This document shows positions 658-25,578 of a stretch of 26,016 nucleotides of DNA, piece after piece. The stretch's first letter is position 1; each line of letters opens with the position of its first letter. The stretch lies in IMG/VR virus record IMGVR_UViG_3300023210_000186, positions 1-26,016 of that record; one strand, given 5' to 3'. The stretch comes from a virus (lineage: Duplodnaviria > Caudoviricetes). A model generated the notes under the pieces. It was not told the DNA's origin and did not search any database. It was given only the letters and a program-made list of their open reading frames with translations. The position numbers and the translations under genes are program-made.

Positions 658-694
658 TATACAACTAAACAATAATTTTACAATAGACAATATG
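658..694 (+). promoter_or_regulatory. Putative phage late promoter, copy 1 (TATACAACTAA-N11-ACAATAGACAATATG)
   Basis: One of four copies with identical 11-nt spacing; ends on ATG 692 of the tail chaperone gene. Confidence 0.75.
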
Positions 695-9373: not shown

Positions 9374-10597
9374 ATGGAAAAGATAGAAGTATTTGAGTTG
9401 GTAATAGACACCGACGATGAAAGCGGAGTTACTGCCATCGCACTAGTAGACCAACCTGCAATAGAGTCAAACTGGATGGCGTTCAGTCAACAGACAGAAC
9501 ATAAGTTTAAAGTAGCTGACGAAGAGAAAAGAACTATAGAAGGTTATTTTATGGTAGCTGACTTATTAATCCCAAGAATAGACCCAGACACAGGAGCTAA
9601 ATTCTTTGTTAAATTCTCAGGAAAGACTATAGAATTAATAAGAGAGAAGCAATCAAAGAACGGATTAACTAACAACTTTAATTTAATGCACGACCCTAGA
9701 CAAATAGCTGAGGGTGTATTCATGTTAGATAACCTTATAATTGATAACGAACGCGGAAAGGTAGCACCTAACGAATTTGAGAAAGTACCTAACGGTTCTC
9801 TTTGGGGTTCTGCTAAAGTTGATAACGATGAAATTTGGGAGCAAGTAAAGAACGGAACTTTTAAAGGTTTTAGCGTAGAAGGGATGTTTAAACAACTTGA
9901 GCCTGTAACAATGGATGAAGATGTAATTAACAAAATAATCAAAACTATACAAGACTTTGAAAAAAGTATAGAGGATAATGTACAAGTAACAAATAAACAA
10001 ACAATAGATAATATGAGCAAAGAAACATTAGACAAGGTTAAGAAATTAATCTTTGGAGAAGAAACAGTAGAAACACCTACTGAAGTAATCGAGGTAAAAT
10101 TAATGAGCATGGAGCTTGCAGATGGCACTATGGTAAACATCGAACCTGCATTAGAAGTTGGTGCAATGGTAACTGTAGAAGTAGAGGGTGTAGTAGCTCC
10201 AATACCAAACGGTGAATATCCTTTAGCAGATGGAATGATTATAACTATTTCAGAAGGTGCTATTTCAGACATCAAAGAAGTAGAAGCAGAGGAAGAGGAA
10301 GCAATGGAAACAGAAGCAACTCCACAAGCAACTACTGAAACAGTAACAGAAGCTAAGATTAGAAAGATTATCGAATCTACTGAAACAGTTTTCGCTAAGG
10401 TTGAAACTTTAGAAACTGAATTAGAAACTGTAAAAGCAGAATTTGCTAAATACAAAGAGGAAAGCGATGCAAAAGAGAAAGCAATGTTTTCAGCAGTAGA
10501 GGAGTTAGCAACAGAAGCTAGTGTAGCACCAGTTAAGAAAAAAAGAAGTGGAGTAATATCTGCTAAAAAGAAATCAATTTTTACAGTAAACAAATAA
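9374..10597 (+). CDS. Prohead serine protease (XkdF-like) fused to scaffold domain
   Basis: AIALVDQPAIE, FNLMH and IWEQVKNGTFKGFSVEG motifs; acidic coiled-coil C-terminal half; immediately upstream of the major capsid gene. Confidence 0.8.
   Translation: MEKIEVFELVIDTDDESGVTAIALVDQPAIESNWMAFSQQTEHKFKVADEEKRTIEGYFMVADLLIPRIDPDTGAKFFVKFSGKTIELIREKQSKNGLTNNFNLMHDPRQIAEGVFMLDNLIIDNERGKVAPNEFEKVPNGSLWGSAKVDNDEIWEQVKNGTFKGFSVEGMFKQLEPVTMDEDVINKIIKTIQDFEKSIEDNVQVTNKQTIDNMSKETLDKVKKLIFGEETVETPTEVIEVKLMSMELADGTMVNIEPALEVGAMVTVEVEGVVAPIPNGEYPLADGMIITISEGAISDIKEVEAEEEEAMETEATPQATTETVTEAKIRKIIESTETVFAKVETLETELETVKAEFAKYKEESDAKEKAMFSAVEELATEASVAPVKKKRSGVISAKKKSIFTVNK
9979..10015 (+). promoter_or_regulatory. 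Putative phage late promoter, copy 2, inside the protease CDS (TGTACAAGTAA-N11-ACAATAGATAATATG)
   Basis: Same motif and spacing; terminal ATG 10013 is in frame with the protease (codon 214). Confidence 0.75.
10013..10597 (+). CDS. Nested in-frame scaffolding protein, 194 aa (MSKETLDKVKKLIFG...)
   Basis: In-frame ATG at the end of the conserved motif; acidic coiled coil with basic C-terminal tail; analogous to lambda C/Nu3. Confidence 0.65.
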   Translation: MSKETLDKVKKLIFGEETVETPTEVIEVKLMSMELADGTMVNIEPALEVGAMVTVEVEGVVAPIPNGEYPLADGMIITISEGAISDIKEVEAEEEEAMETEATPQATTETVTEAKIRKIIESTETVFAKVETLETELETVKAEFAKYKEESDAKEKAMFSAVEELATEASVAPVKKKRSGVISAKKKSIFTVNK

Positions 10598-12262: not shown

Positions 12263-12299
12263 TATACAACTAAGTAAAAAAATTACAATAGATAATATG
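12263..12299 (+). promoter_or_regulatory. Putative phage late promoter, copy 3 (TATACAACTAA-N11-ACAATAGATAATATG)
   Basis: Directly after a terminator; ends on ATG 12297, which opens the portal operon. Confidence 0.8.
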
Positions 12300-22607: not shown

Positions 22608-22615
22608 TATATTTG
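22608..22615 (+). promoter_or_regulatory. Bacteroidota -7 promoter element TATATTTG
   Basis: Exact TAnnTTTG match, intergenic before the SSB gene. Confidence 0.6.
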
Positions 22616-23026: not shown

Positions 23027-23034
23027 TATATTTG
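23027..23034 (+). promoter_or_regulatory. Bacteroidota -7 promoter element TATATTTG
   Basis: Exact consensus; overlaps late-motif copy 4. Confidence 0.6.
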
Positions 23035-23069
23035 TACAACTAAGGAAATTTATTACAATAGATAATATG
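23033..23069 (+). promoter_or_regulatory. Putative phage late promoter, copy 4 (TGTACAACTAA-N11-ACAATAGATAATATG)
   Basis: Same motif and spacing; ATG is followed immediately by TAG. Confidence 0.75.
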
Positions 23070-23170
23070 TAGGCTGAACCGCAAAAGCAGCTACACATAA
23101 ATATTAATAAGATTAAACCCTTTAATGGTTAGTAGAGTTGCGGTCTCGAAAGCTATTAAAGGGTTTTTTT
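23067..23170 (+). ncRNA. Structured RNA / attenuator: two hairpins, kissing loops, loop-E motif, terminator
   Basis: P1 23068-76/23088-95; P2 16 bp 23115-30/23151-66; AGTA/GAA internal loop; GAG/CTC stem; loops ACCGCAA and TTGCGGT are perfectly complementary; T7 tail. Confidence 0.7.
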
Positions 23171-23182
23171 ATACACAATATT

Positions 23183-23818
23183 ATGGCAAAAGACTTACCT
23201 TATTTTAAGTTCTTCTGTTCCGAGTGGAACGATGGAGATATAACCCTAGAAGATTACGAGATACAAGGATTATTTATTAATATCTGCTCCTATTACTGGA
23301 GTAGTGGTTGCGAAATTTCACTACAAAAACTAAAAAAAAGATTCAGAAATCAGGATAAAAACATAAATTATCTGTTAAAAACTGAAATAATTAAGAGAAA
23401 AAATAAAAATATTTCTATAAATTTTTTAGATGAACAATGGATTGAAAGACAAACCAAAAGCAGTAAGAACTCAGCAGCAGCAAAGGCTAGATGGGATAAG
23501 CAAACGCAATGCGAACGCAATGCGAACGCATCAGAAATGCAATGCGAAAGTGATGCCATTAAGATAAGAGAAGAAAAGAAAAGAAAAGATAAGATAAGAG
23601 AAGAACTTTTTAACTCTCAAGTTTGGAAGGAAGGAATAGCTAAATTAAATAAATGTAAATTAATTGAGGTAGAAAAGTTTTTAGTTATATTTTTGGAAGG
23701 TCAAGAATTAGATGACAATTTAGACAGAGATTTACAGGAGGTTAAAAAACACTTTCGAGCGTGGTTTAAAAAACAAGACTTTAAATCTGACAAACCAAAA
23801 AGAACTATAGCACTATGA
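23183..23818 (+). CDS. Replication initiator-like protein (YdaU/DUF1376-like N-terminus); start moved to ATG 23183
   Basis: MAKDLPYFKFFCSEWNDGDITL...QGLFINICSYYW, SSKNSAAAKARW, internal DNA repeats; directly upstream of the primase-helicase. Confidence 0.7.
   Translation: MAKDLPYFKFFCSEWNDGDITLEDYEIQGLFINICSYYWSSGCEISLQKLKKRFRNQDKNINYLLKTEIIKRKNKNISINFLDEQWIERQTKSSKNSAAAKARWDKQTQCERNANASEMQCESDAIKIREEKKRKDKIREELFNSQVWKEGIAKLNKCKLIEVEKFLVIFLEGQELDDNLDRDLQEVKKHFRAWFKKQDFKSDKPKRTIAL
23503..23605. repeat. Five in-register 11-bp repeats plus purine tract; putative replication origin
   Basis: AACGCAATGCG x2, AACGCATCAGA, AATGCAATGCG, AAAGTGATGCC, then AAGATAAGAGAAGAAAAGAAAAGAAAAGATAAGATAAGAGAAGAA. 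Confidence 0.65.
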
Positions 23819-25578
23819 ACAACTTTATAGAATGGAATACGCTTAACTTTAAAAAGGACAAAGGACAAGAAAAGATACGCTGTCCTGAGTGCGATAACTC
23901 CAGAACAGACAAAACAGACAAGAGCTTACAGATTAATCACAATGGAGGATATGGTAAATGTCATTACTGTAGTGCTTTAACTTTTAGAGATAAGAACGAA
24001 TACGAGCCAAAGGTAATACTACCTAGTCAAGACTGGCAGAACTTTACTAAACTATCTGAGGGGATGGTTAAATGGGTAGAGAATGAAAGAGCAATAGGAC
24101 AGCACTCACTTATTCAGTTAGGAATAACAGAAGAAAAACAATACCAACCACAACTAAAAAAAGAATGTAGCAATATTGTATTTAATTATTTTGAGGGAGA
24201 TACTGTAGTAAATAAAAAATATAGGTCAGCTCAAAAGAACTTTACACAAACAGCAGGAGGTAAAAGTATATTTTATAATATTAATTCTGTAGTAGGAGAG
24301 TCTGAGGTTTGGATCTTAGAGGGCGAATTTGATGTTTTAGCTCTGCATCACATAGGTATAAAGTCGGCTATAAGCGTTCCTAATGGAGCAAATGACAATG
24401 ACGAATACTGGAAGAACTCCGAGAAGTATTTAAAAGATGTAAAAAAGTTTATTATAGGAGTAGACAACGACACAAAAGGAAATGAGCTAAAGGATAAAAT
24501 AGCACATCGTTTAGGTAGGTGGCGCTGCGAGTTTGTAGAATGGCAGAACAAAGACGCAAACGGAGACTTACAAAAAGGAGTATTAAAACAATCTGTAGTA
24601 AATAGAAATAAGTTTCCAGTAAGTGGAACGGTTACTATTTCAGATTTAAAAAATGAAATATTTGACTTTTATAATAATGGACTACCCGAAACAATTAAAC
24701 CAAAAGCAGAATGTTTTAAAGATATAAACAGCTTTTTTAGTTTAATGCGTGGACATCTTTGTACAGTTACAGGAATACCCTCTCACGGTAAAAGCGAGTT
24801 TACAGAATGGTATGTTATGAACTTAGTAAAAGACTTTAAAATGAAAGCTAGTTTCTTTACTCCTGAACACGCTCCATTTGCACTACATCAAACTAGGTTT
24901 ATTCCCAAAGCAATAGGAAAACCATTTTGGAAAAGTCAAGGCGATAGGATAACTCCTGCTGACATTGAAAGATATGTAACTTGGGCAGACCAAAAAATAT
25001 ACTATACTATGCCAAACTCAGGAGAGGTCGCAGACTGGAATTGGATACTAGATACTTTTAAACAGCAGATGTTTAGCTATGGAGTAGATATATTTGTTAT
25101 AGATGCTTTTAACAAAGTAGTCGGAGCATCTGACAAAAAAGATATAGACGCAGTATTAACTAGGCTTACAATGTTTGCACAAACTAACAATGTTATAATA
25201 ATGTTAATAGCACACCCTACAAAGATGCGAAAGGAGGAGGATAATACTTTTAGCGTTCCTACCCTTTACGATGTTTCAGGTAGCGCAGACTTTAGAAATC
25301 AAACTCACGATGGTTATGTAATACATAGAGACTTTAACGATAACTCTGTAATGTTTCAGAACCTAAAAACTAAGTATAATTTTCAGGGCGATATAGGTAA
25401 GAATTGTTTTCTAAATTATGACATACCTACAGGCAGATATTATACAGCAGGAGGTTATGTTCCTACATTTGATTTAACAAAAGATTTTGATAGTCAAGAA
25501 AAACAACTATCTTTAAAACCAAACGCAGACTTTGACTTTTTACCTAGCGAGGATGAGCTAGAAGATTGCCCATTTTAA
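23815..25578 (+). CDS. Bifunctional primase-helicase (T7 gp4/Twinkle-like)
   Basis: Zn finger CPEC...CHYC; TOPRIM EGEFD, DND, KDAN; Walker A GIPSHGKS; FVID; AHPTK; DVSGS. Confidence 0.92.
   Translation: MNNFIEWNTLNFKKDKGQEKIRCPECDNSRTDKTDKSLQINHNGGYGKCHYCSALTFRDKNEYEPKVILPSQDWQNFTKLSEGMVKWVENERAIGQHSLIQLGITEEKQYQPQLKKECSNIVFNYFEGDTVVNKKYRSAQKNFTQTAGGKSIFYNINSVVGESEVWILEGEFDVLALHHIGIKSAISVPNGANDNDEYWKNSEKYLKDVKKFIIGVDNDTKGNELKDKIAHRLGRWRCEFVEWQNKDANGDLQKGVLKQSVVNRNKFPVSGTVTISDLKNEIFDFYNNGLPETIKPKAECFKDINSFFSLMRGHLCTVTGIPSHGKSEFTEWYVMNLVKDFKMKASFFTPEHAPFALHQTRFIPKAIGKPFWKSQGDRITPADIERYVTWADQKIYYTMPNSGEVADWNWILDTFKQQMFSYGVDIFVIDAFNKVVGASDKKDIDAVLTRLTMFAQTNNVIIMLIAHPTKMRKEEDNTFSVPTLYDVSGSADFRNQTHDGYVIHRDFNDNSVMFQNLKTKYNFQGDIGKNCFLNYDIPTGRYYTAGGYVPTFDLTKDFDSQEKQLSLKPNADFDFLPSEDELEDCPF

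Follow-up and report, generated by a model that had tools for sequence, protein, structure and literature searches.

Among the regulatory RNAs described so far, the guanidine-IV riboswitch (GGAM-1/mepA) and Gd4v consist of two hairpins joined by a loop-loop pseudoknot (PMC9788692), and for guanidine-IV it has been proposed that the kissing hairpins stretch the linker between them, so that the outer pairs of the terminator fail to form (PMC7736828), growth of the second hairpin, P2, being described as competing with the kiss in smFRET (PMC11611296). A loop-mediated pseudoknot also lies 5' of the initiator genes repZ of the IncI-alpha plasmid ColIb-P9 and repA of IncB, where control is described as translational and as depending on an antisense RNA as well as on a leader peptide (PMC4705826). 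In the satellite phage P4, the CI RNA pairs with the sequences seqA and seqC in the leader of the replication operon, leading to premature termination (PMC4825925), and for the fhsA motif, a weak riboswitch candidate, the terminator loop has been proposed to pair with a preceding hairpin and to prevent termination (PMC11109978).

The leader analysed here lies in a stretch of 26,016 nucleotides, referred to below as the window, whose virus record is 26 kb long and 79% complete. It is flanked on its 5' side by an ssb gene (DUF3127, phrog_4932) and on its 3' side by a 211-aa open reading frame (ORF), which is followed by a primase-helicase gene. To our knowledge, the timing of DNA replication in flavobacterial phages has been little studied.

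The two-hairpin leader and its surroundings

The nearest cultured relatives of the window's replication proteins are phages of Flavobacterium, Cellulophaga and Leeuwenhoekiella, and the host is therefore likely to be a (marine) flavobacterium. Judging from weak initiator-like matches and from its position, the 211-aa ORF is a probable replication initiator, and in this sense the placement of the element before an initiator and a primase-helicase, as originally predicted, holds. About four iteron-like 11-nt direct repeats occur within this ORF at about 23503-23550, which is reminiscent of lambda-type initiator genes, as these contain their own origin. Every base-level coordinate of the original prediction was reproduced when the sequence was checked again, including the terminator-like hairpin with its run of seven T and the seven-pair complementarity between the two loops, which in relatives is kept as a co-changing pair (Table 1).

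Table 1. Features of the leader region and of the genes behind it, in window coordinates
Feature	Position	Strand	Basis or remark
Bacteroidota sigma-A type -7 box TATATTTG	23027-23034	+	sequence; predicted start near 23039
Copy 4 of the clade-specific TACAA-N15-ACAATAGAYAATATG motif	23035-23069	+	ends where P1 begins
ATG-TAG	23067-23072	+	overlaps 5' arm of P1; no conserved mini-ORF
Hairpin P1 with loop 1	23068-23095	+	arms 23068-76 / 23088-95, G23072 bulged, loop 23077-87
Kissing segment of loop 1, ACCGCAA	23078-23084	+	exact complement of loop 2 TTGCGGT
A-rich linker, 19 nt	23096-23114	+	family median 17 nt
Hairpin P2	23115-23166	+	16-bp lower stem, AGUA/GAA internal loop, 3-bp upper stem, loop 2
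P2 lower stem	23115-30 / 23151-66		16/16 paired, 2 G-U
P2 top	23131-34, 23138-44, 23148-50		AGTA, loop TTGCGGT and GAA, respectively; GAG/CTC upper stem
U7 tract of predicted intrinsic terminator	23164-23170	+	first 3 T shared with P2 stem
Probable replication initiator, 211 aa	23183-23818	+	phrog_29280 E 2.6e-18; phrog_9327 primosomal protein E 8.5e-5; precedes primase-helicase; ATG 16 nt beyond P2 stem
Primase-helicase	23815-25578	+	phrog_239 E 2.3e-81; Toprim; 57% identity to Flavobacterium elemo phages

P1 and P2 form when the region of 159 nt is folded (z-score -2.92, 2/200 shuffles being equally good), and both kissing 7-mers are single-copy on the + strand of the window. P2 is predicted at -21.7 kcal/mol and the kiss helix at about -6.5 to -10.7. 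The features of an intrinsic terminator, i.e., a stable predicted hairpin and a U tract, are present, and a strict terminator scan does not report the P2 hairpin because it permits loops of only 3-8 nt. Of 15 sequencing runs considered as evidence of expression, 8 are on record as RNA and all consist of assembled contigs; a contig of a relative in X5 and X7 spans the element and the contigs of X1-X4 do not cover it; contigs reveal neither RNA ends nor strand, and therefore the results from X1-X5 and X7 count neither way.

A covarying leader family in phage genomes

The original prediction had named the regions upstream of homologous initiator genes, and covariation within them, as a means of checking it. 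Among 37 loci fetched via the initiator, ten (L001-L010) retain the whole element, and their loop pairs change together (ACCGCAA/TTGCGGT, GGTACAA/TTGTACC, GGTGCGG/CTGCACC, AATGCAA/TTGCATT and AGTGCAA/TTGCACT). One of these, L001, whose initiator is 100% identical to that of the window, represents the window in all later counts. Near-identical leaders stand before different initiator proteins when L001 is compared with L008-L010, L065, L104 and L086, so the replication module is swapped directly downstream of the leader.

Viral, genome and metagenome collections were scanned with sequence patterns, which gave at least 328 distinct TAGTAG-N11-CGAA contexts, 8 matches near locus ends being skipped. 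Among the matches listed, 42 contexts have a lower stem of at least 10/12 pairs, and upstream of these a perfect 7-base complement of loop 2 is found in 34, a 6/7 complement in 6 and a 5/7 complement in 2, the last two also being without an upper stem; among the weaker-stem contexts listed, a 7/7 complement occurs in only 6/286. The working set, likewise drawn from the matches listed, comprises 42 members, namely 40 with both stems and 2 bulged-stem loci with a perfect kiss, three of 45 candidates (L053, L068 and L073, which have 5-6 pairs, a 9/12 stem and no U tract) having been left out before the counts on the 42 were made.

Within this set, 22 loop-2 sequences occur and all 7 loop positions vary. 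A perfect upstream complement is present in 36/42 members, two of which were admitted for that very match, against 0.05 expected with non-cognate loops. Columns 1-6 of the kiss are paired in 42/42 members and column 7 in 38/42, across 23 loop haplotypes, of which 21 are fully paired (permutation mean 2.0, maximum 8). Loop 1 was chosen as the best complement, so the weight is carried by the controls, that is, by the 6/286 in stemless contexts and the 0.05 for non-cognate loops. As for P2, 13 of the 15 modelled pairs change on both sides, with 94.6% of cells paired; both its upper and its lower stem covary, none of 500 shuffles scored as high and slid controls came nowhere near. Relatedness inflates these counts, although the pair types per column are numerous nonetheless.

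P1 is less uniform: a stem of at least 4 bp around the kissing segment, which was forced to be unpaired, is found in 39/42 members and is weak or missing in 3/42. At least 5 U lie in the 8 nt past the last G-C pair in 40/42 members, a run which most scan patterns imposed, though the one pattern without that demand gave members that also have it. The linker motif A[AG]ANATT, picked after the alignment had been viewed, occurs in 23/42 members against 6.0 in shuffles, and an RNase E-like linker pattern was discarded as too common to be of use (36/42 against 23 in shuffles). The scan of the genome collection gave at least nine matches, two of which are members, one being a contig of 2 kb whose bin carries the label Erysipelotrichaceae; this label was not accepted as identifying a host. 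A search of 87 genomes with the P2 model gave three matches, namely the seed itself, a single new member and an ordinary terminator, and BLASTN of two leaders against cultured phages gave chance matches only. The leader is thus a real, strongly covarying phage RNA family.

The sequence AGUA-GAA has been listed as one of four sequences of the sarcin-ricin motif (PMC1865062), and the leader shares with the sarcin-ricin/loop E (bulged-G) motif an internal AGUA/GAA loop between helices, its three-dimensional fold being predicted from sequence only. The scan patterns fixed AGUA/GAA, and therefore the 42-member set cannot prove its conservation. It is kept in all ten protein-anchored close loci; of six further members found with the P2 model, all with a kiss (6-8 bp, read by eye), three have AGUA/GAA, one has CGA/GAA and two have neither. 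In the working set, the U that flanks the internal loop faces A in 21 members and C in 21. The original prediction of a loop-E sequence stands as regards its canonical form and its retention among close relatives, but related leaders in the same place lack it, and AGUA/GAA marks a subtype rather than the whole class of leaders. The sarcin-ricin loop of rRNA is capped by a GAGA tetraloop, whereas in the leader 3 bp and a kissing loop of 7 nt close off the internal loop; because the leader has no GAGA tetraloop, the idea of a ribotoxin decoy was dropped.

A wider class was sought among 33 loci chosen by protein alone (27 distant initiator loci and six cultured phages). In 18 of them, a terminator-like hairpin lies within 750 nt 5' of the initiator, its loop forming at least 7 Watson-Crick pairs with a preceding segment; these 18 include three duplicates or near-duplicates and one locus, L017, that has no promoter and is possibly a chance match. 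Counted by hairpin, 19/48 have a preceding complement, against 1.26 by swapping. Cultured carriers of this looser leader are elemoA, morran9-1 and Nekkels_1, together with phi19:1 by eye, whereas the P2 model found no AGUA/GAA-type member in ten cultured phage records, its weak matches including phi19:1 and Nekkels_1. Six loci (L012, L019, L029, L032, L535 and L532) form a second kissing-leader subfamily with GTGAGA-type loops and GAA/UGA-like purine internal loops, which also occurs in cultured Flavobacterium phages.

The genes behind the leader are diverse. The first downstream ORFs (33 scanned of 39 called) encode, among others, NUMOD4/HNH, GIY-YIG, Prim-Pol, PriCT, DUF6291/DUF7833, HTH, Bro-N and methylase products, and 16/33 have no match at E<=0.001. 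More widely, the leader belongs to initiator-helicase or primase operons, or is attached to nuclease genes that lie either in the ninB-ninG or in the ssb-ninB interval. In L513, L515 and L511, it has been inserted there together with an HNH or endonuclease VII-like gene, and it may travel with mobile nucleases. Three phage records hold two leader copies each, the loops differing within each pair. In L408, L444 and L465, a second complement of loop 2 just past the U tract contains ATG-CAG-TAA, one base past which a TTG appears to open a primase-like gene; translational coupling gated by loop 2 is possible at these loci.

With regard to transcription start, the Bacteroidota -7 box TAnnTTTG is described as occupying positions -12 to -5 (PMC9723704). 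An exact match lies within 55 nt 5' of loop 1 in 34/42 members against 2.4 expected, and in most members outside the window's clade it directly adjoins P1, so that P1 would begin at the transcription start. A second TATATTTG box is found at 22608-22615 of the window, immediately 5' of the ssb gene and without a kissing leader. In the window's clade, a 30-nt motif intervenes between promoter box and P1. This motif, TACAA-N15-ACAATAGAYAATATG, was matched solely in that clade and is present in four copies in the window (660-694, 9981-10015, 12265-12299 and 23035-23069) against 0.24 expected, the same four syntenic copies being found in the relative G011 (L527, L528 and L509). In both genomes, its ATG precedes three structural ORFs at a constant 7-8 nt, and it is likely to be a phage late promoter or activator site yielding nearly leaderless mRNA; copy 4 may be a late promoter starting RNA at P1. 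Elsewhere in the window, and likewise in G011, a motif copy leads to an in-frame internal start (10013-10597, 194 aa) inside a 407-aa ORF before a capsid-like gene, which suggests a separately expressed scaffold protein.

Possible functions of the leader

Of the alternatives put forward in the original prediction, an attenuator deciding read-through into initiator and primase-helicase is the best reading of the covariation, context, geometry and folding, and we lean, by a modest degree, towards the view that the leader is a transcription attenuator acting in cis, in which the kiss between loops 1 and 2 holds the terminator stem open and allows read-through into the replication genes. RNA would start near 23039 from the host-type promoter, P1 would fold first, and loop 2, lying 14-23 nt before the end of the stem, would clear the polymerase just before the U tract. 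Once the kiss had formed, a rigid stack of P1, kiss, upper stem and bulged-G loop would stretch the linker of 17-19 nt, the outer pairs of the 12-16 bp stem could not close, and read-through would follow with the start region free; if the kiss were absent, the stem would close, transcription would terminate near 23170 and an RNA of 105-130 nt would be released. The default would be a kinetically set fraction of read-through keeping initiator, primase and nuclease genes low, which could be shifted by a protein on the AGUA/GAA loop, by an RNA in trans or by a ligand.

Several lines of evidence point to such an attenuator. Nested minimum-free-energy folds of growing transcripts prefer the loop 1-loop 2 helix as long as the 3' end lies at 23144-23156, and the terminator once it has reached 23159. 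The median linker of 17 nt compares with a median stack of 34 bp, and at a median ratio of stack to stretched linker of 0.96 (calculated with rough constants) the linker is about the shortest able to span a coaxial stack; it is from these two results, together with the topology shared with guanidine-IV, that we infer attenuation in cis. The leader, moreover, always stands 5' of mutually unrelated genes, as a cis element would, and the unrelatedness of their products makes feedback by the product of the first gene unlikely, just as the presence of two copies with different loops in each of three records argues against one shared RNA in trans. Against the attenuator, the terminator greatly exceeds the kiss in predicted stability, so that antitermination could only be kinetic or assisted; longer stacks do not go with longer linkers (rho -0.47, in part an artefact of end calling), and the same geometry fits a compact fold in which every helix is formed. 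The latter would correspond to a stable non-coding RNA, with all helices and the kiss coexisting and the A-rich linker docked along P2, whose terminated form, serving as a decoy or protein scaffold, would be the actual product and whose read-through would be no more than leakage. Covariation of the upper and lower stems alongside the kiss, the conserved length and motif of the linker, and the retention of AGUA/GAA in 3/6 members found without a fixed pattern would all suit such an RNA, but we regard it as improbable, given that the leader always lies between promoter and start codon, at 9-51 nt from the ATG, that it heads differing replication or nuclease genes, and that related leaders in the same place lack AGUA/GAA.

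A self-quenching timer is unlikely, though not to the same degree as the compact RNA. The terminated short RNA would build up and, in trans, bind newly made transcripts at loop 1 or loop 2; either contact would prevent the kiss in cis and promote termination, with allele-specific shut-off, or the exclusion of related phages, as the outcome, much as P4 CI RNA acts. The multiplicity of loops is in keeping with this, 22 alleles occurring in 42 members and only 22/504 non-cognate combinations pairing at 7/7. L001 and L008 differ at 4/14 loop sites and at one other site, and in the window's clade loops diverge faster than the rest (24/112 against 51/648 sites, p 5e-5, in a post hoc comparison that counts paired sites twice), but across all clades they do not (0.124 against 0.113, p 0.57), and general diversifying selection on the loops is therefore not supported. 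The clade motif ending exactly at P1 could supply the short RNA late, and a second complement of loop 2 at the start region, resembling the seqC of P4 (PMC4825925), exists in 6/42 members from two lineages, although this downstream complement is absent from the window and from 36/42 members. A tyrosine integrase is encoded in 2/11 leader-bearing records (2/9 of the near-complete ones) and is absent both from the window's own 79%-complete record and from the 99%-complete relative G011, and a serine recombinase was found in 0/9 near-complete leader-bearing records, so lysogenic immunity is probably not general. The partner in cis should also usually beat a 7-bp contact in trans. It is doubtful that widespread ligand-free kissing-loop attenuators head both Bacteroidota phage replication operons and portable nuclease cassettes, with their own terminated RNA feeding back in trans; were it true, an RNA-only timer and an allele-specific exclusion code would be contained in 7-base loops.

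Control might instead be mainly translational, the closed lower stem masking the ribosome landing region on read-through RNA and the kiss opening it, in favour of which the ATG lies within 15 nt of the last stem G-C pair in 13/39 members with a called ORF, and in two lineages the start region offers loop 2 a further pairing partner. We give this little credence in view of the U tract after the stem in 40/42 members and of the distance to the ATG, which is 16 nt past the stem in the window and at least 27 nt past the last G-C pair in six members. A small-molecule riboswitch of guanidine-IV-like build, sensing a nucleotide or a stress signal, would share the topology of guanidine-IV and Gd4v (PMC9788692) and could use the invariant purine-rich internal loop beside the kiss; this is very unlikely, since guanidine-IV binding is described as needing highly conserved loop nucleotides (PMC7736828), whereas every loop position of the leader varies, and since no metabolic or transporter genes lie downstream (sugE, GNAT, MATE and transaminase genes: 0 among 33 first downstream ORFs and 68 neighbours).

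Least credible of all, and in our view barely plausible, is a switch worked in IncI-alpha style by a ribosome on the ATG-TAG mini-ORF or by an antisense RNA from the other strand, the mini-ORF and the IncI-alpha parallel having been raised in the original prediction. In the window, as in 7/9 close relatives, the ATG-TAG does overlap P1's 5' arm, but it is missing in L009 and replaced by a 9-codon frame in L086 with the structure intact in both, its spacing varies (4-6 nt) and the motif that carries it is matched only in the window's clade; the ATG of motif copy 4 seems to come along with the motif as a by-product. As to antisense transcription, TAnnTTTG, the only promoter type scored, occurs on the opposite strand within 200 nt downstream in 5/42 members against 6.4 expected, and none is found on the minus strand near the element in the window. 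With ATG-TAG not conserved and the antisense box not enriched, both proposals were rejected, and the likeness to IncI-alpha/IncB control fails on the antisense promoter and on a leader peptide overlapping the hairpin.

Comparison with known systems

That the element belongs to no named family, as the original prediction supposed, agrees with searches of Rfam 15: cmscan of the window at E<=5 gave only SNOR75 (E 3.6), outside the element, and at E<=3 no match fell on the leader in 14 related loci (11 of the 33 protein-anchored loci, that of phi19:1 and two model-found members), where one tRNA with its reverse-strand match and one match of E 1.7 were obtained. A literature search, covering few subscription papers, gave no account of this RNA. 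Candidate RNAs that precede NUMOD4, GIY-YIG and Prim-Pol genes are listed in PMC10690425, and the leader may sit unnamed in the candidate sets of PMC10690425, PMC5737381 or PMC11109978. What is new is probably a strongly covarying phage leader family without an Rfam entry and with a predicted function, kissing-loop attenuation itself being known. Found ahead of the initiator in roughly half of the related loci that were examined, it provides a concrete control point, which cultured phages with the looser leader (elemo, morran9-1, Nekkels_1 and phi19:1) make testable, and its many natural loop alleles, most of which do not fully cross-pair, could serve as parts for gene control in Bacteroidota.

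The fhsA motif, by its description, is set apart from the leader in belonging to Leptotrichia and lying upstream of a formate-THF ligase gene. With IncI-alpha/IncB plasmids the leader has in common a pseudoknot upstream of a (here probable) replication initiator, but there the stop of the leader peptide exposes the pairing partner, whereas here a terminator-like hairpin supplies the partner with its loop, and in place of a conserved peptide or an enriched antisense promoter there is only, some 110 nt upstream, the unconserved ATG-TAG. The leader recalls P4 CI RNA (and Gifsy-1 IsrK) in that RNA pairs with RNA ahead of phage replication genes, in P4 with premature termination as the result; CI, however, is a processed RNA acting in trans with targets on both sides, whereas the downstream target exists in only 6/42 leaders and not in the window, and most near-complete leader carriers lack an integrase. 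The guanidine-IV riboswitch, together with Gd4v, comes closest, each having two hairpins, a loop-loop pseudoknot and a 3' hairpin that is terminator-like (Rho-independent in guanidine-IV). The leader differs from guanidine-IV in its hypervariable loops, those of guanidine-IV being conserved, in the AGUA/GAA under loop 2 and in preceding phage replication or nuclease genes rather than sugE, GNAT or MATE genes. If the leader is indeed an attenuator in cis, the mechanism proposed for guanidine-IV, in which a kiss opens a terminator, would be extended to a ligand-free or factor-gated setting in phages.
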